Virus record (IMG/VR): IMGVR_UViG_2541047953_000003
Location: 1-11,887 of that record
Length of the DNA: 11,887 nt
Strand: one strand, 5' to 3'
From: a virus
Taxonomy: Duplodnaviria; Heunggongvirae; Uroviricota; Caudoviricetes
The notes beneath the pieces were generated by a model that saw only the letters and a program-made list of their open reading frames with translations, searched no databases and was not told the origin of the DNA. Position numbers and translations under genes: made by a program. Shown here piece after piece: positions 2,740 through 11,887 of the stretch; position 1 is the first letter of the stretch; each line of letters begins with the position of its first letter.

Positions 2740-2810
2740 GATCGTTGACAGCCACACTCCATGACGGGTAAAAAGTGGATAAAATAATTTTACCCACCGG
2801 ATTTTTACCC
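2740..2810 (+). promoter_or_regulatory. Candidate intS promoter and recombinase/RDF binding region (attL arm)
   Basis: TTGACA at 2745..2750; TAAAAT at 2780..2785; inverted repeat GGGTAAAA (2765..2772) / TTTTACCC (2789..2796), with TTTTACCC repeated again at 2803..2810 abutting the ATG. GTTCG motifs recur at 2626, 2657, 2719 and 2730. Confidence 0.35.
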
Positions 2811-3968
2811 ATGCTCACCGTTAAGCAGATTGAAGCAGCAAAGCCGAAAGAAAAACCATACCGCCTACTCGATGGTAATGGTCTGTACCTTTATGTCCCT
2901 GTATCCGGAAAAAAGGTCTGGCAGCTTCGCTACAAGATTGACGGTAAGGAGAAAATCCTGACCGTAGGAAAATATCCGCTAATGACTTTGCAGGAGGCAA
3001 GGGATAAGGCATGGACTGCGAGGAAAGACATCTCGGTTGGCATCGATCCGGTAAAGGCGAAAAAGGCTTCGTCTAACAACAATTCATTTAGTGCGATTTA
3101 CAAGGAATGGTACGAGCACAAGAAGCAAGTCTGGTCAGTAGGCTATGCAACTGAACTTGCCAAAATGTTTGATGACGACATTTTACCCATCATCGGCGGT
3201 CTTGAGATTCAGGATATTGAGCCGATGCAACTGCTGGAAGTAATCCGCAGATTTGAAGATCGCGGTGCAATGGAGCGAGCCAACAAAGCCCGCAGAAGAT
3301 GCGGCGAGGTTTTCCGTTACGCTATTGTCACCGGAAGGGCTAAATATAACCCAGCACCTGACCTTGCTGACGCCATGAAGGGATACCGCAAGAAGAACTT
3401 CCCGTTTCTTCCTGCAGACCAGATCCCGGCATTCAATAAAGCACTAGCAACATTTTCAGGAAGTATCGTATCGCTCATTGCCACCAAGGTTTTACGCTAT
3501 ACAGCCCTAAGAACGAAAGAGCTTCGTTCCATGCAATGGAAGAACGTCGATTTTGAAAACAGGATTATCACCATCGACGCCAATGTGATGAAGGGACGCA
3601 AAATTCATGTGGTTCCTATGTCAGACCAGGTGGTTGAACTTCTCACTACGCTAAGCTCAATCACTAAACCAGTGTCAGAGTTTGTTTTTGCCGGACGCAA
3701 CGATAAGAAGAAGCCAATCTGCGAGAACGCGGTGCTACTTGTGATCAAACAAATCGGCTATGAGGGTCTGGAAAGCGGTCACGGATTCAGGCATGAATTC
3801 AGTACGATTATGAACGAGCACGAATGGCCTGCTGACGCTATTGAGGTGCAACTGGCACATGCCAACGGCGGATCTGTGCGTGGGATTTACAACCATGCTC
3901 AGTATCTCGATAAGCGCAGAGAAATGATGCTGTGGTGGGCGGACTGGCTGGACGAAAAGACACAGTAA
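2811..3968 (+). CDS. intS: Tyrosine recombinase, P4-type prophage integrase (IntS-like, 385 aa)
   Basis: ORF immediately downstream of argW. The C-terminal region has the tyrosine recombinase signature (HGFRHEF ... VQLAHANGG ... RGIYNHAQY). Start chosen at MLTVKQ (2811); an in-frame ATG at 2775 would add 12 residues. Confidence 0.85.
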   Translation: MLTVKQIEAAKPKEKPYRLLDGNGLYLYVPVSGKKVWQLRYKIDGKEKILTVGKYPLMTLQEARDKAWTARKDISVGIDPVKAKKASSNNNSFSAIYKEWYEHKKQVWSVGYATELAKMFDDDILPIIGGLEIQDIEPMQLLEVIRRFEDRGAMERANKARRRCGEVFRYAIVTGRAKYNPAPDLADAMKGYRKKNFPFLPADQIPAFNKALATFSGSIVSLIATKVLRYTALRTKELRSMQWKNVDFENRIITIDANVMKGRKIHVVPMSDQVVELLTTLSSITKPVSEFVFAGRNDKKKPICENAVLLVIKQIGYEGLESGHGFRHEFSTIMNEHEWPADAIEVQLAHANGGSVRGIYNHAQYLDKRREMMLWWADWLDEKTQ

Positions 3969-3976
3969 TCAAAAGC

Positions 3977-4000
3977 GGCAGGCCACATAAAAAGCCTGCC
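3977..4000. terminator. Hairpin between convergent intS and the UmuD'-like gene
   Basis: Stem GGCAGGC (3977..3983) / GCCTGCC (3994..4000) with a 10-nt A-rich loop. The U-tract is weak on both strands. Confidence 0.4.
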
Positions 4001-4318
4001 TTATACCGCTACGCTGTCACTTCTCACATCGATGATGGTGTGTGTCACCACGCCGGCGACAGTGATATCATCCAGGGCCTCGCCTTCAATCGCTTCGCCG
4101 TCTTCGGTTATCAGCGACCGCCCTCTCAACGTGGCAAGTTCCGTCCCGCCGCCGTGCTGGATCAGAACCTGACTACCCTGCCTTGGTTTCAGGGAGATAT
4201 CCAACACAACGTAACCGCCAGACCGCTCGAAAACTAGCGTGTTTGGGCCTACATTGCAGATCGCGTTAACAGACAGACGCTGCTCAACGTAGTCAGACGC
4301 CGGAGACGGGAACGCCAT
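4001..4318 (-). CDS. UmuD'-like protein (S24 LexA/UmuD fold), genetically pre-truncated and lacking the GDSM serine motif
   Basis: N-terminus MAFPSPASDYVEQR matches the UmuD segment GFPSPAADYVEQR that immediately follows the RecA-mediated cleavage site. The C-terminal half aligns loosely with the UmuD beta-core, but no GDSM-type serine motif is present (RSGGY instead). Start codon overlaps the stop of the upstream small gene (TGATG). An in-frame ATG at 4351 is the alternative start. Confidence 0.7.
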   Translation of the reverse strand: MAFPSPASDYVEQRLSVNAICNVGPNTLVFERSGGYVVLDISLKPRQGSQVLIQHGGGTELATLRGRSLITEDGEAIEGEALDDITVAGVVTHTIIDVRSDSVAV

Positions 4319-4557
4319 CAGATGACCCTCCCCATGTTGGCCATCATCCACAGCCTGTTTTCGCTATGCTCTGCCGTTTTGTCGACAAAGTACGTCTGCT
4401 CTCTTGATATCCAGTTGTTAGCCTCCTCTTCTGAAAAATGGATACCCCTCCGCTGTAGTTCGGAGATGAAAGAATCAGTGTAAAGGTATTGATAACCTTT
4501 AGGATTTATAGAAATGGAGGCTCTGAAAGCCTCCGCGATGGCGTTACGTCTGATCAT
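4318..4557 (-). CDS. Small hypothetical protein (79 aa from ATG; 83 aa if the TTG at 4569 is used), first gene of the SOS-box operon
   Basis: ORF directly downstream of the LexA box and translationally coupled to the UmuD'-like gene. I recognise no family. The arrangement recalls the small impC gene preceding impA in plasmid impCAB operons; this is an analogy by position only. Confidence 0.5.
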   Translation of the reverse strand: MIRRNAIAEAFRASISINPKGYQYLYTDSFISELQRRGIHFSEEEANNWISREQTYFVDKTAEHSENRLWMMANMGRVI

Positions 4558-4575
4558 GTCTCTTACCAAACAAAA

Positions 4576-4591
4576 CTGTATTTATATACAG
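4576..4591 (-). promoter_or_regulatory. LexA (SOS) box CTGTATTTATATACAG overlapping a candidate promoter
   Basis: Matches the E. coli consensus CTGT-N8-ACAG with an AT-rich centre. It lies 19 bp upstream of the small-gene ATG. On the transcribed strand a -35 TTGACT (complement of 4612..4617) sits about 17-18 bp upstream of a -10 that overlaps the box. Confidence 0.7.
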
Positions 4592-4622
4592 TATTGTTTG
4601 CGTTAATCAACAGTCAATCATT

Positions 4623-6722
4623 TTATTGAATAAAAGTGTAAGGAGAAGCGATGGTATATTGTGCATTAGCCCCTATGGGAGTATCGAAAATCCACACCTC
4701 ACTCAAACCATCTTTTGTAATTGACGCGTTAGGTCCCCCATGGCTGCATCCATAAAGATATAACTTTGCTTTACCAGTTAAGTCGGATCCTTGCCCAGCA
4801 GTAAAGCAGGCGCCACCGATAAAGTCTGCCCTTGAACTATCATGCGAGTAACACCCAAAGTTAGCTGTAACCGTGCCATCATGAACATCGTGAACTACAC
4901 GGCCAAACGTTCCGTAGTATTCACCGTTCAAACGTATCCCTACAGTTCCGTCATGAGCGGTAGAGCCGTTATTATTTGGTAAATTATCAAAACCACTCCA
5001 ACGGCCAGTACAACCAATTTCGATAAACCACGGCTTTATCCCAAGACCATTCTGATCGGCATGATAGTTAAATGCGTCCTGCATCCCGTATTGAGCAGTG
5101 CAATTCTGCATAATACAGTTTACACCTAAAGAGTTAAAGGCATTCCTTGTCACAGATAAATCAAATATACAATTTTTTGCATATAAGTATCCTTTTTTAC
5201 CCGCCGTTTGAACCTCAGCCTGAAACCCCCTAAAGCTGTCCTTAAAGTGAATATTTTCAATATAAACTTTGCTATTATCCTGAATTCTTCCATTAGTCAA
5301 TTGAAGAACAAGCCGTGAATTAGAATCAGGAGCTCGCCCGTCAAAAAGATGAATATACAGCGTATTCCCTGTTTTATAGGATGAGCCAGGTGTTGAAACG
5401 CAGTCGGCAAGGCTGGCTACGGGAGTTAGAACCTGAGCATGTCCATAACTATCAAGATTGGCATAGTCAACAACGTTTAGAACAAGATTACCTGTGTACT
5501 GGTATACGCCAGCGCTTCCCTGTGCCGCCCACGTTGCAGCCGGTTCAACAGTGCTCAGAATTGGTGTTCCATCGTATCCGATGAAATCGAGCTCGCGGTC
5601 AACTACGCTAACATTCCATGTAAAATCACGGGTATATTCCATCCCGCCTTTTATCATGATTGTCCTTGCTGCCGGGGTTTTCTCAATGGCATATTTTATA
5701 CGCTGGAATGGTTTAGCCTGCGTGCCGTCTCCAGTCGTATCACTACCGTTAGTGCAGTCCACATAATATGTTGTCCCGCTGGATGCCTTCTTCACAGCCA
5801 CATCATAATCAGTCCAATATCTAAGCGTGCCATCAGAACGAAGTGCGCAGTAAATTGGAATCTGCTCTTCTATTCTTCTCAGCTCACCTGGAAACCATGG
5901 TATTGATGATGGGCATCCGGCAATTCCAAAAGCACTTTTATTTGCATTGCCAATTAATTCTATAAGAGTCCCTGATTTAATATGAGCAATAAGTAGCGAG
6001 CCGTCAAATGGATATCTGTCACGCGCTTCATATGTTCCGTCTGATTTAACAACAATACATATTGTGCTTGATGTTGTTGTGACATTCTGATTTTGACCAA
6101 TAACACTAACGCCATTAAAAGAATAAAGACCGCCAGAAAAGCTTATAGTTGATGATCCTGCAACTGGTTTCCATTGAGGAGATATAATCACGCCTCCTAA
6201 CGATCTGTATAATCTATCAAGAGCTGTATAAACGGTGCTGTCCCTATAGCCAACCAAGGTGGCTCCATTTGACTCTCCAAGCGCTGAGAAATCTACGCTT
6301 ATTGAGCTTATTGCATCGTATACATTGGTGTCTTTAAATCCTACTAATTTCGCGCCATCTGGCTGTGAAAGATCATATCTTAGCTGATCTGGTGAATATC
6401 TTAAGACATTGGAGAAGTAAAATTGCTGTGCTCCATATGCATCATACACAGCCATGCTATGGCTTTGAACTGTCACGAATTTGGCAATCTGTCCGTTATA
6501 TACAGGATAACCAGCGGCGTTAATGATGATTGGCTGCGAAACAGGAACGTGAGAACCATCCTCATTCTCCACATAAACCTGAATCTGGTTTTCAGGATTT
6601 ACCGGGTCAGTGTCAATTTTACCGATATAAATTTTACCATTGGCAACCGCTTTAAAAGAACGCGCCATAGTGAAGAGTTGCGAAGGCATGCTTACTACAA
6701 CATTGGCTGTAATGTCTGTCAT
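4623..6722 (-). CDS. Phage tailspike protein (P22 gp9-type head-binding domain plus divergent receptor-binding region)
   Basis: 699-aa ORF. The first ~110 residues ([11 protein letters not shown]...[23 protein letters not shown]...) match the conserved N-terminal domain of P22-like tailspikes as remembered. The rest differs from P22 gp9 and contains a beta-helix-type start motif ([15 protein letters not shown]...TIMIKGG). RBS GGAG upstream. Confidence 0.85.
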
Positions 6723-6779
6723 TTAATTTGCTCCAGATAGAAGGAAACGCCGCAGCGTGGCTACGGCAATGCGTCATTG

Positions 6780-6794
6780 AGACCACAGTGGTCT
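6780..6794. promoter_or_regulatory. Candidate Mnt operator: perfect 7-1-7 palindrome AGACCACAGTGGTCT
   Basis: Perfect palindrome between divergent mnt and tailspike, immediately upstream of a candidate mnt promoter (-35 TTGTGG 6797..6802, -10 TATGAT 6820..6825). Resembles the P22 mnt operator half-site as I recall it. A second small palindrome CAATGCGTCATTG lies at 6766..6778. Confidence 0.5.
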
Positions 6795-6857
6795 TATTGT
6801 GGATATAACCAGTAGATCATATGATGCCGATCCACTTACAAAAGTGAGGCATCAAGA

Positions 6858-7109
6858 ATGGGAAGAGATGACCCGCAATTTAATCTGCGGCTACCTTACG
6901 AATTAAAGGAAAAACTAAAACAGCGAGCCAAATCCAATGGCCGCTCTCTTAATTCAGAATTAGTTCAGATAGTGACTGATGCTGTATCAAAGCCATCCAA
7001 AATTTCAGGCTATCGAGACGATGCGGAACGCATCGCTGATGAGCAGTCTGAACTTGTTAAGAAGATGGTGTTTGATACGCTGAAGGATTTGTACAAAAAA
7101 CCCACCTGA
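6858..7109 (+). CDS. mnt: Mnt-type repressor (Arc/MetJ ribbon-helix-helix family)
   Basis: 83-aa ORF with strong similarity throughout to P22 Mnt as remembered (RDDP.FN.R.P...EKLK.RA..NGRS.NSEL.QIV.DA.SKPS...GYR.DAER.ADEQSELVKKMVFDTLKDLYKK). RBS GTGAGG 8 nt upstream. Confidence 0.85.
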   Translation: MGRDDPQFNLRLPYELKEKLKQRAKSNGRSLNSELVQIVTDAVSKPSKISGYRDDAERIADEQSELVKKMVFDTLKDLYKKPT

Positions 7110-7122
7110 TGGTGGGTTCCAT
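7101..7122. terminator. Intrinsic terminator between convergent mnt and the lipoprotein gene
   Basis: Stem CCCACC (7101..7106) / GGTGGG (7111..7116) with loop TGAT containing the mnt stop codon. On the - strand the hairpin is followed by TTTTTTG, making it strong for the lipoprotein gene; the + strand U-tract is weaker. Confidence 0.7.
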
Positions 7123-7125
7123 TTA

Positions 7126-7545
7126 TTAGTCTTGCTTTGTGGACGGTATAAGGGATGCATTTGCCTCTTTAGGCTTCAAGGTATACATCCCACCATTAAA
7201 TGGATCTACAGCAAGCCAACCAATTAACCCACCAAACACAAGGTTTCCACCAATATACCAACCATTAGCATTGGCTTTTATTGGCATGGTAACTGGTTCG
7301 TACCCATCCTTCTCCATAGTGATCTGGTAGCTCTTTTTGCCAAAATAACTACCATCTGACTTGGCAAGAGTTACTCCTTGCGGGGTCTTACCTTGCGCAA
7401 CAATCACGCCTGATTCGTCTTTTACCTTAAAGCTCGCACCGGAAGGATTGCTGTTCACTTGCACAAGCTGTGTTTCGTCACCAACAATAGTTGCGCACCC
7501 AGATAACATGATAACGCCAGCAACGACGCCGATAATCCTCTTCAT
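7126..7545 (-). CDS. Putative prophage lipoprotein (139 aa) with a PEGA-like beta region and a glycine-rich hydrophobic C-terminus
   Basis: Signal peptide with lipobox (VIMLSGC). The middle region has a PEGA-like pattern (VQVNSNPSGASFKV...GKTPQGVTL...GYEPV), and the C-terminus has a Gly-zipper-like hydrophobic segment (YIGGNLVFGGLIGWLAV). Has its own terminator. The domain call is from pattern only. Confidence 0.6.
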   Translation of the reverse strand: MKRIIGVVAGVIMLSGCATIVGDETQLVQVNSNPSGASFKVKDESGVIVAQGKTPQGVTLAKSDGSYFGKKSYQITMEKDGYEPVTMPIKANANGWYIGGNLVFGGLIGWLAVDPFNGGMYTLKPKEANASLIPSTKQD

Positions 7546-7616
7546 ATTACTTTCCGTTTTGTTAGAATCAGAAAGATCTTAATAATAAAAAGTATTTTCG
7601 TGAAGATATTGTCGAT

Positions 7617-7631
7617 TGAGTTAATAACTCA
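7617..7631. promoter_or_regulatory. Perfect 7-1-7 palindrome TGAGTTAATAACTCA in the divergent lipoprotein intergenic region
   Basis: Perfect palindrome about 50 bp upstream of the + strand lipoprotein start, inside an AT-rich divergent promoter region (7546..7679). Operator-like; the binding protein is unknown. Confidence 0.35.
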
Positions 7632-7679
7632 TTTACACCCAACAGTGCCATGATGGCAAAGATAAGGAGAGTTAATCAT

Positions 7680-8165
7680 ATGAAAAAATCACTGTTAATT
7701 ATCCCGCTTCTGCTGGCAGGGTGTGCAAAGATTAGCGACTATCAGGCAAGTTGCGAACAACGCTATCCAAAGCTTAGCGATATGGCTAATTGCCTTGATG
7801 CTAGCGTGAAGAGCGACTCACGCATGGCATCAGCACCAACACCTAAGTTATATGTCCTTGCTGCGAAGATGCTCGGGCAAGGTGTCGATGATGGCAAGAT
7901 AAGTGACGCGCAGGCAAGACTTGAGCTTCAGAATCTTTATGTTCAATTACAAAGCCAAGAACAAGCCCAACAAATAGCGCAAAGCCAAGCATTCCAGCAG
8001 GCTTTATTGAATTATCAGGCTGTAAACACTATGCAAGCGATCGAGCAAAAAGCGAGACAGCCTGTTATAACTCAACCATATCCAACACGAGTTGACACTT
8101 ACACAAACTGCAATTCAGGGTTTGGAAATACAGTCACATGCAACAGTAGCAGTAACATCAGATAA
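7680..8165 (+). CDS. Putative prophage lipoprotein (161 aa) with a Gln-rich, probably coiled-coil region
   Basis: Start taken at MKKSLLIIPLLLAGC (lipobox LAGC) with RBS AAGGAGA 9 nt upstream. The in-frame ATG at 7650 is less likely. The mature part contains a Q-rich heptad-like stretch (LELQNLYVQLQSQEQAQQIAQSQAFQQALLNYQ). I recognise no family. Confidence 0.6.
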   Translation: MKKSLLIIPLLLAGCAKISDYQASCEQRYPKLSDMANCLDASVKSDSRMASAPTPKLYVLAAKMLGQGVDDGKISDAQARLELQNLYVQLQSQEQAQQIAQSQAFQQALLNYQAVNTMQAIEQKARQPVITQPYPTRVDTYTNCNSGFGNTVTCNSSSNIR

Positions 8166-8255
8166 CAATCAGCAAAGGTATCGCCTATGCAGAGGGATAC
8201 GATAAACCTCGCGTTCTACATATTTGGTTTTTGCACGTTCATGGTGTTTGAAAAG

Positions 8256-10649
8256 CTATTCTGACAACGCATCAGACTTAGCCCCCTGCATCATAGCGTT
8301 AATTGCCTTTTGTGCCTGCTGCATGGCTTTCTCAAACGCTGTTGAACCGCGTGGGGTGTTTGCCATTCGGAGCATTGCATTTCTGAATGGCTCGCTCTCA
8401 TAGGCGCGAGTAAGAAGTCCGTAGCTTACTGCTGCGCCAGTTGTCGCCGGGTTCATTGCCGTCCCATACCCAATTATGAACGGGATAGTTTGCTGCCCTG
8501 TGGGTGTTGTTACTGCCGCTTTTGCAGCCTGCTGCGTGGATTGCAGGTAGTTTTTTAATCCTTTCAGATAAGCAGCGTCCTGCCCCTTAAATGTGATGCC
8601 AGTCTGTTTTTGCAGGATGTTAAGCTGCCGAAGGAACTGGTCAGGGGATCCGCCAGATTTCTCCATCGCCTTTCCAATGATGCCATTGCGCATTTGCGCC
8701 CTGCCAACACGACCAACTGAGTTATACAGCGTCTTAATTTCCGATTTGTTCTTGCTGAATAGCATGTTGTTGACAACTTCCGGTGTCAGGTCGCCTTTCA
8801 TGAGAACATTCTTCAGCCTGGTATTCTTTAGTTTCGCCGCTTCGTCAGCGTAGACGGCATTGGCCTGCTGATATTTACGGAGAGTATCGTTGCCAAGATT
8901 CTGACCAATGGCACCATTGATATCGTCTGTCATCGCCTTGTAAACGCGCTGAATGGCAGCATCGGAACGGTTTGGCAACACTGGTCGTTCCCCCTTCACG
9001 TCCATTCTGAACTGGCTGCGCAGATCGCTTAATTGCTTCAAATCCAGATTTACCGGACCATCAGGACCAGCATTGCGAACAAGCTCATCACGATAGGACT
9101 GAAGTTTTGAAATAGTCTCGTTATCGGCGACCTTACCAAGCTTCTGCAGATTAGATATTTCTGTATCAATCTGCTGAATTGCTCGCGCAGGATGAATGTT
9201 TACTCCAGCCATAGCATTCTGAACCTGCTCCAGTCGATTACCGGCGGCACGACGAATTCCTGATGTTTTCGCTTTAAGGCTGTCAATAACAACCGCTGGA
9301 TCATACTCACCGAATTTATCGGCAAATCTCTGCACCAACTGGCTTCTCGCTTCCTGTTGCGTTGCTCTCATTCCGCTTGTGCCAGCCAGGGGGATATTTT
9401 CTGCTGTAGTCTGCGCCATTTTCCCGACGCGGGAAGTAGGCTGTAACAGGTCTGTGGTGTGCAGAGGAACTCCTTCACGCTCTGCAAACCTGATAGCCTG
9501 TTGAGCTTCTGGTGCTATCGAACCACGAACACCACGATAAGCAGCACCTAATCCACGTCCGGCAGCGTTAATAGCACCGCCAGCCAGCACACCAACGCCT
9601 AAATCGGTGGCGAGTGCTTCCGCATCATCTTTCGCACTGTTTGCAGCAAGTGATCCAACTGCGTTTTCTGCTAGAAGACGAGTTGCACCCTGAGCAATTC
9701 GACCAGCAAGTGTTGGTGCCTGTGTTGCCGCTCTCTCAACGCCAGCAGGAGTGAGGTAAGGCAATGCTTCAGCAAATACCCTTCCCTCTGTCGTTTGTGG
9801 AGTCAGCGCGCCTTGCTGAAGGCCAAAGTCCTGCTCTAATCCCTGCGTTGTTACTCGTGGTGCTGGTTGATATGTACCATCGCCAATGCCGAGTTTACCT
9901 CCAGCCCAAGCCGCCGCGCTTGTTACAGCATCAGTGAGTTCAGCAGGTATGTTCGCTACGTTGATTCCTGCCTGTAGTAAGCCGCGCCCGGTTTCAGCAA
10001 GTCCATTACCAAGGTCAGACATTATTCCGCCTTGCTGCTGAACAGGTTTCGGTGCGACAGAACTTACGGGTTGAGGTGGCTGCTGACTGGCTGCCTGCTG
10101 CTCAATCTGAGCAAATGGATTATTTGGGTCTGACTGCACGCCTGATGCCGATACTTGTTCGGATGACTGTGCTTCCAGTTGTGCAAACGGGTTGTTAGGG
10201 TCTTGCTGAGGATGTACCTTTGCAGAGGTGGCGCGCTGTTCGACTGTTGAGTCTGTCACCGGGTCACCCGCCCATTGAGCAAAGCGATCATCAACGTAAC
10301 CGCGGCCTTCAGGTCCTGGCGTATATTCACCACGCTTTGCCTTCATAACGTTGCCGGGACCGTCGTGATAAGCCTGAAGAGCGTCACGCCAGTTACCAAA
10401 CTGCTGGTACATCTTTGCCAGATAGCGCGCGCCAGCGTCAGCCTGATATTCGGGGTTTTGCATTTGCTCATCGGTATAACCCATATCACGCCATGTCCCA
10501 GGCATGACCTGAGTCAATCCTACAGCCCCGGCGGAGCTTACTGCGGCAGGGTTGTAAGAAGACTCCTTGGCACCCAGTGCAGTCATCAACCCTTCTGGCA
10601 CACCGTAACGTGCGCCAGCCTGCTCTAACAAATCACGGTAATTAGCCAT
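8256..10649 (-). CDS. Phage ejection (internal virion) protein with an N-terminal lytic transglycosylase (SLT) domain
   Basis: 797-aa ORF. The N-terminus carries family-1 lytic transglycosylase motifs (ALGAKESSYNP with catalytic Glu; AVGLTQVMPGTW; AGARYL). It is followed by a tandem peptide repeat (DPNNPFAQLE / DPNNPFAQIE) and a long Ala/Gly/Gln-rich body. Its position upstream of the immI-like region and tailspike corresponds to the last ejection gene of P22-like phages. Confidence 0.75.
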   Translation of the reverse strand: MANYRDLLEQAGARYGVPEGLMTALGAKESSYNPAAVSSAGAVGLTQVMPGTWRDMGYTDEQMQNPEYQADAGARYLAKMYQQFGNWRDALQAYHDGPGNVMKAKRGEYTPGPEGRGYVDDRFAQWAGDPVTDSTVEQRATSAKVHPQQDPNNPFAQLEAQSSEQVSASGVQSDPNNPFAQIEQQAASQQPPQPVSSVAPKPVQQQGGIMSDLGNGLAETGRGLLQAGINVANIPAELTDAVTSAAAWAGGKLGIGDGTYQPAPRVTTQGLEQDFGLQQGALTPQTTEGRVFAEALPYLTPAGVERAATQAPTLAGRIAQGATRLLAENAVGSLAANSAKDDAEALATDLGVGVLAGGAINAAGRGLGAAYRGVRGSIAPEAQQAIRFAEREGVPLHTTDLLQPTSRVGKMAQTTAENIPLAGTSGMRATQQEARSQLVQRFADKFGEYDPAVVIDSLKAKTSGIRRAAGNRLEQVQNAMAGVNIHPARAIQQIDTEISNLQKLGKVADNETISKLQSYRDELVRNAGPDGPVNLDLKQLSDLRSQFRMDVKGERPVLPNRSDAAIQRVYKAMTDDINGAIGQNLGNDTLRKYQQANAVYADEAAKLKNTRLKNVLMKGDLTPEVVNNMLFSKNKSEIKTLYNSVGRVGRAQMRNGIIGKAMEKSGGSPDQFLRQLNILQKQTGITFKGQDAAYLKGLKNYLQSTQQAAKAAVTTPTGQQTIPFIIGYGTAMNPATTGAAVSYGLLTRAYESEPFRNAMLRMANTPRGSTAFEKAMQQAQKAINAMMQGAKSDALSE

Positions 10650-10811
10650 TTACTGCCCCAAAGATGGAAGATATCCGTAGCGATTAATGAAGTCGATTGA
10701 CAGCTCGGGGTGCTGCTTCAGGTAATGGTCATGTATGAAGACGGTGAGATGTGGTCTGCAATGTGGAATGGCAATCGCTGGGATGATGGCACCGAATATC
10801 CGGATCCGCAC
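10650..10811 (-). pseudogene. Possible 3' remnant of the upstream ejection-protein gene (no start codon); marks the deletion junction
   Basis: The - strand frame ending at TAA (complement of 10650..10652), directly abutting the ATG of the 797-aa gene (TAAATG), is open for only 53 codons and contains no Met. It overlaps a + strand small ORF (10725..10868), so one of the two is not real. Confidence 0.3.
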
Positions 10812-10864
10812 TCAGTTACGCACTGGCGTGAAATGCCAGCAGCGCCGAAACAGGAGGTGAAGTC

Positions 10865-11077
10865 GTGAGCAAGCACATCATCAAATATGACTATCGAGAG
10901 GGAGTTAAACTTGCAAAGCATGAAATAGAAACGTGGTGCGGACATGCGCCACAATTTTCAGACTGGTTGTTTCAGGATGCTCAGCACGCGCTGTTGAGCA
11001 TTGAGCAGGGAACGCTGCTTGTTCCTTGCAAGAATTGTCTGGCAGCAATCATCAAAACGGCGCAGGAGGTGAAGTGA
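10865..11077 (+). CDS. Small hypothetical protein (70 aa, GTG start), possible Cys/His metal-binding motif
   Basis: Strong SD (CAGGAGGTGAAGT) 8 nt upstream of the GTG. Contains CGH ... CKNC. Its stop overlaps the start of the next gene (TGATG). Confidence 0.5.
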   Translation: MSKHIIKYDYREGVKLAKHEIETWCGHAPQFSDWLFQDAQHALLSIEQGTLLVPCKNCLAAIIKTAQEVK

Positions 11078-11361
11078 TGGACTCCTTCGCGAAATATACG
11101 ATCATTGACTGGATAGCATTCCTTCAGGTTTTGCTCATCTGGTTTTATATGGCTTACAGGAGTGGACAGTGGATTGTCAGTGTAGCCTGTAGCAAGGGAT
11201 GGCGTTGGTGGAACAGAAAGAATAAAAAAGCACTGGCATTGGATTCGTTTTACGAAGCATTCAATCTTAACAGCCTTCAGCCTGGTTCTGTCATTGTAGT
11301 CACCACTCAAAGCGGCATGACGATACAAATTCACAAGCCAAAGGAGGAAGGTCGTGGCTAA
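11077..11361 (+). CDS. Small hypothetical membrane protein (94 aa)
   Basis: Start at MDSFAKY, preceded by the same 13-nt CAGGAGGTGAAGT element. One N-terminal hydrophobic helix (IIDWIAFLQVLLIWFYMAY). The longer ORF from 11026 is less likely. Confidence 0.5.
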   Translation: MDSFAKYTIIDWIAFLQVLLIWFYMAYRSGQWIVSVACSKGWRWWNRKNKKALALDSFYEAFNLNSLQPGSVIVVTTQSGMTIQIHKPKEEGRG

Positions 11362-11423
11362 CCTGCAACTTGCCGTCAAAGGTGAATAACAATCCTCGCA
11401 TTCACTGGGATTTCTTTTATCTG

Positions 11424-11450
11424 AACTCGCTACGGCGAGTTTTGTTTTAT
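11424..11450 (+). terminator. Candidate hairpin terminator after the membrane-protein gene
   Basis: Stem AACTCGC / GCGAGTT with loop TACG, followed by TTTTGTTTTAT. Confidence 0.4.
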
Positions 11451-11461
11451 GGAGATGATAA

Positions 11462-11629
11462 ATGCACTTCCGAGTCACAGGTGAATGGAATGGAGAGCCA
11501 TTCGACAGGGTTATCGAAGCCGAGAACATCAGCGACTGCTATGACCACTGGATGCTGTGGGCGCAGATAGCACATGCAGACGTAACCAATATTCGAATTG
11601 AAGAACTGAAAGAACACCAAGCCGCCTGA
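11462..11629 (+). CDS. Small hypothetical protein (55 aa), prophage right-arm gene
   Basis: ATG preceded by GGAG with 7-nt spacing; ORF MHFRVTGEWNGEPFDRVIEAENISDCYDHWMLWAQIAHADVTNIRIEELKEHQAA, followed directly by a strong terminator. It is below the ORF-track size cutoff. It may correspond to the small ypdJ-type ORF next to torI in K-12, but I do not recognise the sequence. Confidence 0.45.
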   Translation: MHFRVTGEWNGEPFDRVIEAENISDCYDHWMLWAQIAHADVTNIRIEELKEHQAA

Positions 11630-11641
11630 TGGCGGTTTTTT
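11621..11641 (+). terminator. Rho-independent terminator
   Basis: Stem CCGCC (11622..11626) / GGCGG (11631..11635) with loop TGAT containing the stop codon, followed by TTTTTTATT. Confidence 0.75.
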
Positions 11642-11651
11642 ATTGCCTGAT

Positions 11652-11667
11652 TTGCAGGTTCGATTCC
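11652..11667 (+). repeat. Second exact copy of the 16-bp argW segment TTGCAGGTTCGATTCC; candidate att core (attR or internal junction)
   Basis: 16/16 identity with 2620..2635. It lies between a terminator and the RBS of the excisionase gene. The sequence downstream of the repeat is not tRNA-like. Confidence 0.55.
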
Positions 11668-11686
11668 CTATTCGGAGATAGCACTC

Positions 11687-11887
11687 ATGCAACACGAACT
11701 ACAGCCTGATTCACTGGTTGATTTGAAATTCATCATGGCCGATACTGGCTTCGGTAAAACCTTCATCTACGACCGGATTAAGTCCGGCGACCTGCCAAAA
11801 GCCAAAGTTATCCACGGGCGAGCAAGATGGTTATATCGTGACCATTGTGAATTCAAAAATAAGCTCTTAAGCCGCGCCAATGGGTAA
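11687..11887 (+). CDS. torI: Excisionase / recombination directionality factor (Xis/AlpA winged-helix family), TorI-like
   Basis: 66-aa ORF with the AlpA/Xis-type pattern (FIMADTGFGKTFIYDRIKSGDLPKAKVIHGRARWLYRD); RBS GGAG 9 nt upstream. Size and position at the far end of an argW prophage from intS match KplE1 TorI as I recall it. Confidence 0.65.
   Translation: MQHELQPDSLVDLKFIMADTGFGKTFIYDRIKSGDLPKAKVIHGRARWLYRDHCEFKNKLLSRANG

Follow-up and report, generated by a model that had tools for sequence, protein, structure and literature searches.

The closest described systems to the locus analysed here are the immI region of phage P22 and its reduced form, the mnt-only 'ant moron', which is already described and is not new. 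ST64T, ST104 and a Paratyphi prophage carry only mnt and one unknown gene at this place (PMC2629481), the mnt-only arrangement is discussed in PMC2629481 and PMC8022706, and the possibility that the mnt gene of phage L is a non-functional leftover was raised in the latter. The first-pass annotation of the present sequence had treated an orphan mnt placed directly against the tailspike gene as unusual. This view has to be abandoned, as the arrangement is standard in phages L, ST64T, ST104, ST160 and SE1 and in many E. coli prophages (PMC2629481; PMC8022706). A BLAST search with the region against 50,697 phage records brought mnt and the tailspike gene together under one short match in L, ST64T, ST104, ST160, SE1, SPN9CC, Gally, vB_EcoP-720R6 and many others, and 106 of 5426 complete E. 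coli genomes contain at least 80% of the 486-bp mnt–operator–tailspike segment. We also collected 80 Mnt-encoding loci from IMG/VR, to which the window and the named phages were added. Sixty-six sequences (window included) encode a Mnt at least 90% identical to that of the window; the tailspike gene is adjacent in all 66 and ant in none, and the distance to the tailspike gene is 135–148 bp in most and about 425 bp in the others. As both the gene with its annotation and the mnt-only arrangement already figure in published genomes and papers, their discovery value is small. The contribution of this work lies in a putative second specificity class of Mnt, in signs of selection on both the protein and its site, in the apparent loss of the old target promoter, and in natural ant-carrying phages that have the same operator; the question is thereby sharpened to why so many P22-like phages retain a repressor whose controlled gene they have lost.

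The window (the whole stretch of DNA analysed, 11,887 nucleotides) has an E. coli-type chromosomal flank, with mlaA, yfdC and a tRNA-Arg(CCT) gene at 2575–2649, followed by a prophage. The latter carries an IntS-type integrase gene (2775–3968, + strand), a UmuD-like gene (4001–4351, − strand) and a gene whose function is unknown (4318–4569, − strand), these last two occupying the position of gtrABC in P22, then the tailspike gene (4623–6722, − strand; 699 amino acids with a P22-type Head_binding domain, 3.8e-65), from which mnt diverges. Beyond mnt lie the moron genes orf139 (7126–7545, − strand, convergent with mnt) and orf171 (7650–8165, + strand), a gene for a 797-amino-acid ejection protein with a lytic transglycosylase domain (8256–10649, − strand) and, at the window end, a TorI-like excisionase gene that starts at 11687. 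A second perfect 7-n-7 palindrome, TGAGTTAATAACTCA, is found at 7617–7631 between the divergent orf139 and orf171 and is unrelated to the Mnt operator. In an alignment with phage Gally, window positions 6381–10037 correspond to Gally 15638–11971 and positions 10717–11645 to Gally 21193–20428. About 29 kb are missing compared with Gally (the remaining ejection genes, head, lysis, replication, immunity region and late promoter), and at the deletion junction (10650–10717) the ejection-protein gene abuts early-left genes. The window prophage (2775–11887) is a defective deletion remnant of roughly 9 kb at argW, an arrangement that resembles the cryptic KplE1/CPS-53 element at argW. Its exact deletion junction occurs in no complete E. 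coli genome of the collection, and the deletion looks recent, since its Mnt has kept 100% identity with the Mnt of intact phages (Gally and vB_EcoP-720R6). The mnt cassette in this window is most likely a still-intact passenger and, because the prophage is defective, any phage-level function is moot here.

The mnt gene, its operator and its promoters

The mnt gene (6858–7109, + strand) is an intact open reading frame encoding an 83-amino-acid ribbon–helix–helix repressor with a C-terminal tetramerization domain. The product matches the Pfam families Arc (PF03869, 2.8e-22) and Repressor_Mnt (PF11423, 2.2e-18) and the solved Mnt structures 1mnt_A (residues 3–77, 2.8e-34) and 1qey_A (residues 53–83, 3.1e-12). 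Both domains of the Mnt family are thus present, the N-terminal ribbon–helix–helix DNA-binding domain recognized by PF03869 and 1mnt_A, and the C-terminal coiled-coil tetramerization domain recognized by PF11423 and 1qey_A. Amino acid identity to P22 Mnt is 69% in the N-terminal domain and 91% in the C-terminal domain. The gene is a domain mosaic with a boundary near codon 50 (about 7010), nucleotide identity to P22 and epsilon34 being 64–65% in the DNA-binding half and 92–94% in the tetramerization half; in phage L, mnt has the DNA-binding half of the window gene and a different C-terminal half. The label 'partition protein ATPase', which Mnt bears in RefSeq phage records (including that of P22, NC_002371) and in PHROG 795, was rejected, as the protein is only 83 amino acids long and has Arc and Mnt domains, an ATPase domain being absent; the label is an evident, propagated annotation error.

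The beta-strand residues with which Mnt contacts its operator were reportedly identified by Knight and Sauer as Arg2, His6, Asn8 and Arg10. Arg2, Asn8 and Arg10 are present in the window protein and residue 6 is Gln, which puts its mature N-terminus, GRDDPQFNLRLP, in a Gln6 class. Residue 6 of Mnt aligns with the base-contacting Gln9 of Arc, and the PQFNLR motif of the window Mnt is identical to that of Arc. Judging from these residues, Gln6 indicates a probable difference in operator specificity, and the membership of the protein in the Mnt family stands.

The spacer between the tailspike gene and mnt (6723–6857) is 135 bp long. It contains the candidate Mnt operator at 6780–6794, a perfect 7-n-7 palindrome (AGACCACAGTGGTCT, or AGACCAC-A-GTGGTCT) with the conserved operator core GACCACnGTGGTC at 6781–6793. 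Such palindromes are expected in shuffled sequences 0.76 times per whole window and only 0.008 times per 135-bp spacer. As is typical of the Mnt family, the palindrome lies beside the −35 hexamer of mnt itself (TTGTGG), with a gap of 2 nt in the window and of 1 nt in P22, and relative to Pmnt it is the positional homologue of the annotated P22 mnt operator. The first-pass annotation had proposed an intact mnt, a perfect palindrome near its −35 that would be the mnt operator, and a 135-bp spacer to the tailspike gene. Open reading frame, Pfam and palindrome analyses confirmed the gene, the palindrome and the spacer, and the homology with P22 agrees with the position assigned to the operator. 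Neither the window nor the whole Gally genome nor a 47-kb stretch around the prophage of strain D7 contains a second copy of the operator at up to two mismatches.

Promoters were called by homology and with a simple sigma-70 weight matrix. The Pmnt homologue (6797–6825, + strand; −35 TTGTGG at 6797–6802, 17-bp spacer, −10 TATGAT at 6820–6825) was called solely by its positional homology to the annotated P22 Pmnt (TTGAGA-17-TATCAT); it scores 9.3 bits in the matrix, compared with 13.1 for P22 Pmnt, and its position is kept in all orphan classes. A start inferred near 6832 would place the operator centre near −45. A consensus promoter scan called no promoter on either strand of the sequence, the Pmnt and Pant homologues included. 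A Shine–Dalgarno motif, GAGG, can be read at 6846–6849 (+ strand), 8 nt before the ATG, and a hairpin terminator at 7099–7118 is common to the convergent mnt (+) and orf139 (−) genes. This terminator-like hairpin overlaps the last mnt codons and the stop, has a stronger T-run on the − strand, and is homologous to a site annotated as a rho-independent terminator in epsilon34.

The two divergent promoters that had also been proposed did not hold up. The homologue of the P22 antirepressor promoter, Pant, is found at 6802–6830 on the − strand (−35 TCGGCA at 6830–6825, 17-bp spacer, −10 TATATC at 6807–6802). Its matrix score is 2.9 bits, P22 Pant (TTGACA-17-TATATT) reaching 15.5 and the Pant of L140, a viral contig that is described below, 11.3. 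Consensus bases are lost in both hexamers of the window homologue (TCGGCA for TTGACA; TATATC without the final T), and the former −10 varies across the orphan classes (TATATC, TGCATC, TGTAAC, TTTATA, TATAAC). The antirepressor promoter therefore appears to have decayed, leaving one promoter, and the active Pant that overlaps the operator in a complete immI is predicted to be missing here. One may nevertheless imagine a weak leftward promoter that is alive and still repressed by Mnt, the tailspike gene having replaced arc–ant as the repressed operon, as the position of the operator relative to the old Pant is that of P22 and L140, and as the deletion puts the tailspike leader 13 nt past the operator. 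With a Pant homologue at background level, both of its hexamers degraded, a silent scan and a −10 that differs in every orphan class, we consider such a promoter improbable.

Read from mnt to the tailspike gene, the spacer consists of the Pmnt homologue, the operator, 13 nt of unassignable junction and the tailspike leader, with a hairpin and a ribosome-binding site. Compared with P22, the spacer lacks the whole stretch that begins at the arc ribosome-binding site and ends just short of the leader hairpin; lost with it are arc, sar and ant, as well as a repeat and the ant terminator. The 135-bp spacer holds neither arc nor ant, and a tblastn search of the window with P22 Arc and Ant matched only the ribbon–helix–helix domain of mnt itself. 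Remnants of arc or ant were the find that, according to the first-pass annotation, would have pointed to a recent, non-functional deletion scar; none was detected by tblastn or by comparison with P22, which indicates that the deletion of these genes is old. The arc–ant junction, which encodes sar in P22, is also absent, and a search of the window with Rfam at the gathering threshold matched tRNA-Arg only, with no match to sar (the presence of a sar model in Rfam is unconfirmed).

Evidence for maintenance of mnt and its site

Comparison of the E. coli-type and Salmonella-type mnt genes, which both belong to orphan lineages, gives a pS of about 0.37 and a pN of about 0.04, hence a pN/pS of about 0.1. 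Across 38 distinct orphan upstream sequences, conservation reaches 98.7% over the twelve half-site positions of the operator, all four bases occur at its centre (the commonest in 32%) and the flank on the tailspike side is conserved to only 69%; conservation breaks off at the operator's outer edge in each of the divergent classes. These figures point to purifying selection on mnt, and both the gene and the operator look selectively maintained, in line with the original suggestion that the repressor was retained after the loss of its target.

The opposite explanation is that the locus is a non-functional deletion scar, in which mnt and its operator are leftovers of the loss of arc and ant that have not yet decayed. 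This possibility was raised for phage L (PMC8022706), and the prophage of the window is itself a remnant. Some copies do show decay: mnt has a stop at codon 53 in two loci (L063 and L068), in the first of which the operator is also mutated (GTGATC), and single operator mutations are found in five other orphan loci (L013, L026, L034, L042 and L054). However, a pN/pS as low as that found across the E. coli and Salmonella orphan lineages, and half-sites so conserved beside a free central base and a diverged flank, speak for selection on the binding of Mnt to this site rather than for a scar in decay. In addition, the cassette is present in many viable phages that have very different tailspikes, and the absence of arc and ant remnants dates the deletion as old, so that we regard a mere scar as having little chance of being the right explanation.

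Possible outputs of the cassette

The reading that we favour, and to which we give a probability of about 45%, is that the operator, Pmnt, mnt and the terminator constitute a self-contained cassette, an mnt-only immI, which would control its own expression and whose output would probably be repression in trans. The cassette has the moron and ejection-protein genes of a P22-like prophage on one side and its tailspike gene on the other. According to this model, it would produce a Mnt tetramer that binds the operator, centred near −45 of Pmnt and with its proximal half-site near −41; the conservation of the half-sites is indirect support for such binding. This binding would set the expression of mnt itself, since no promoter is left in cis to repress. 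The selected output would be that Mnt silences in trans the Pant promoter of incoming phages that carry the same immI operator, which would protect the resident repressors from anti-repression; this is the role that P22 Mnt plays against superinfecting P22.

The existence of phages with the same operator had been put forward in the first-pass annotation, and such phages were indeed found. We scanned IMG/VR for AGACCACNGTGGTCT and examined the first 120 stretches listed, in 48 of which a Mnt-like gene adjoins the site. Three of these 48 (L087, L140 and L151) contain complete immI modules, and the GACCAC operator accompanied by ant occurs in 3 to 4 viral contigs compared with about 45 orphan loci, among the first 120 matches listed. 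In the three modules, a Gln6 Mnt-like repressor with an unrelated C-terminal domain is followed, past the operator, by arc and ant; the operator is identical to that of the window and lies just downstream of the inferred −10 of a plausible Pant (TTGACA-17-CATCAT, 11.3 bits). A more distant analogue (L142) has a ribbon–helix–helix gene and an antirepressor-like gene. These contigs come from uncultured siphophages that share about 82% identity with the Salmonella phages S107, SPN3UB and Oslo (ES18-like). Other immI specificities are found in siphophages related to them, and the metagenome set that yielded L151 also yielded many of the orphan loci.

That an identical operator exists ahead of arc–ant supports a role of the orphan Mnt in trans. 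Against this role, the matching phages that carry ant are rare in the data, and none was found among cultured phages or complete E. coli genomes. A scan of metagenome contigs for the operator together with the arc ribosome-binding site gave two matches in 241 million records, of the types of L087 and L140. A DNA search of complete E. coli genomes and cultured phages with the L140 immI module and a protein search of cultured phages with the L140 Mnt returned partial ant or arc matches only and no complete Gln6 immI, and a scan of genome contigs with the L140-type Mnt protein found no relatives. The eight matches obtained when genome contigs were scanned with CAATAAGACCACNGTGGTC fell in unrelated taxa and were taken as chance. 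There is a further difficulty, as a function in trans does not by itself require an operator in cis. Moreover, P22 Mnt bound at this position is said, from the work of Vershon et al. in 1987, to leave Pmnt unrepressed and to stimulate it only indirectly. The conservation of the operator in cis is therefore not confidently explained by repression in trans.

The main rival to trans repression accounts more directly for the conservation of an operator in cis in spite of a dead Pant. It proposes that operator-bound Mnt and the hairpin act together to block or adjust transcription arriving at the tailspike gene from the right, by read-through from orf139 or as late-operon transcripts. The tailspike gene (and, here, the UmuD-like gene) would then be silent in the lysogen, or the dosage of tailspike in the lytic cycle would be set in this way; the epsilon34 paper hints at such a role in P22. 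In every case the operator separates mnt from the tailspike leader, sequence conservation stops at the operator's outer edge, and a structurally conserved hairpin is found past it. However, there is no conserved promoter directed towards the tailspike gene in the spacer, a bound repressor does not as a rule halt antiterminated late transcription, which would pass it, and the P22-like phages Sf6 and HK620 lack mnt and express their tailspike normally. On balance we consider a gate of this kind rather unlikely, though it has better prospects than the scar or the live leftward promoter.

The leader hairpin (6748–6768, − strand) precedes the tailspike ribosome-binding site by about 20 nt, with a weak T-tract after the hairpin. 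Both elements, hairpin and ribosome-binding site, have their homologous counterpart in the P22 sequence that directly precedes gene 9, and compensatory changes affect 4 of the 7 hairpin pairs across 14 diverse loci. The hairpin is kept in P22-like phages with or without arc and ant, and may act in attenuation, in processing or in stabilization of the mRNA. In a subclass of orphan loci (L023, L033, L050–L054, L059, L063 and L068), an AT-rich insertion of ~280 bp lies between the tailspike leader and the gene, the spacer being about 420–430 bp. The tailspike ribosome-binding site and first codons (ATGACAGAT) stay on the operator side of this insertion, which places a mosaic joint right at the beginning of the tailspike gene.

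Returning to the reading that we favour and to its main rival, both would make of the orphan Gln6 Mnt cassettes a selected stand-alone module, carried by many P22-like phages and with a purpose beyond the control of their own antirepressor, whether trans immunity or a tailspike gate. This generalization is offered with considerable doubt, and some carriers of Gln6 cassettes are cryptic remnants. It is pure speculation that the exchangeable tetramerization domain might allow mixed tetramers with the Mnt of co-resident P22-type phages.

The Gln6 class among known immI systems

In the orphan loci the N-terminus is MGRDDPQFNLRLPYEL and the operator core is GACCACnGTGGTC, whereas every P22-type arc–ant locus has the N-terminus MARDDPHFNFRMPMEV and the operator AGGTCCACsGTGGACCT. 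Gln6 and GACCAC occur together in the orphan loci, in L087, L140 and L151 and in L142, and His6 and GGTCCAC occur together in all P22-type loci; the two operator types differ at two symmetric positions per half-site. N-terminal Mnt identity is 57–59% over the first 45–52 residues for the three complete modules and 38% for L142. What this analysis adds is that, as far as covariation of protein and site can tell, Gln6 Mnt with GACCACnGTGGTC is a second specificity class, distinct from His6 Mnt with GGTCCACsGTGGACC. We infer that the P22 and window types of Mnt would be heteroimmune.

The immI-like modules of Oslo, S107, Midgardsormr38, ES2 and CUS-3 were considered and fall outside the Gln6 class, with other N-termini and other palindromes. 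Regions of the CUS-3 type (L069–L072 and L219) carry two tandem Mnt-like genes and ant, with no arc, and thus form a third variant with a different wiring. The CUS-3 locus (L219) gave no match to a palindrome of the P22 or GACCAC type, and neither type was seen in L069–L072 within the 110 nt that precede the His6 mnt.

Compared with P22 immI, the window has a homologous mnt with a nearly identical tetramerization domain, an operator that abuts the −35 of Pmnt, the same place between gene 16 and gene 9, and the same sequence just upstream of gene 9. It differs in that P22 has arc, sar, ant, the ant terminator and a live Pant, whereas the window lacks these genes and its Pant appears decayed, and in that residue 6 of P22 Mnt is His with the operator half GTGGACCT, whereas the window combines Gln with GTGGTCT. 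With P22 Arc, the window protein shares the ribbon–helix–helix fold and the beta-strand motif PQFNLR; unlike Arc, it has a Mnt-like N-terminal arm (RDD) and the Mnt tetramerization domain, and its operator is Mnt-like and not an arc operator. The three complete modules (L087, L140 and L151) have in common with the window the operator AGACCACsGTGGTCT, its placement by Pmnt, and a Mnt-like set of residues, Arg2, Gln6, Asn8 and Arg10. In contrast with the window, they have a plausible Pant, have kept arc and ant, encode C-terminal domains that are unrelated and longer, and lie in the tail-gene region of ES18-like siphophages, where the tailspike gene is not adjacent.

The mnt-only phages (L, ST64T, ST104, ST160, SE1, Gally and vB_EcoP-720R6) are complete phages, whereas the window cassette lies in a deleted prophage remnant at argW, and the Mnt proteins of L and ST64T differ from that of the window by a diverged C-terminal domain (53% identical). 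By side-by-side comparison and alignment of the window with phage L, ST160-like and E. coli loci, the resemblance is close: in these phages, as in the window, mnt diverges from the tailspike gene across a spacer of 135–147 bp, the N-terminal domain is of the Gln6 type, the operator core is GACCACnGTGGTC, the Pmnt homologue and the leader hairpin are present, and arc, ant and sar are all absent. With its divergent tailspike gene, Gln6, this operator core and neither arc nor ant, the window locus has every character of the mnt-only ant moron of the L/ST64T type.
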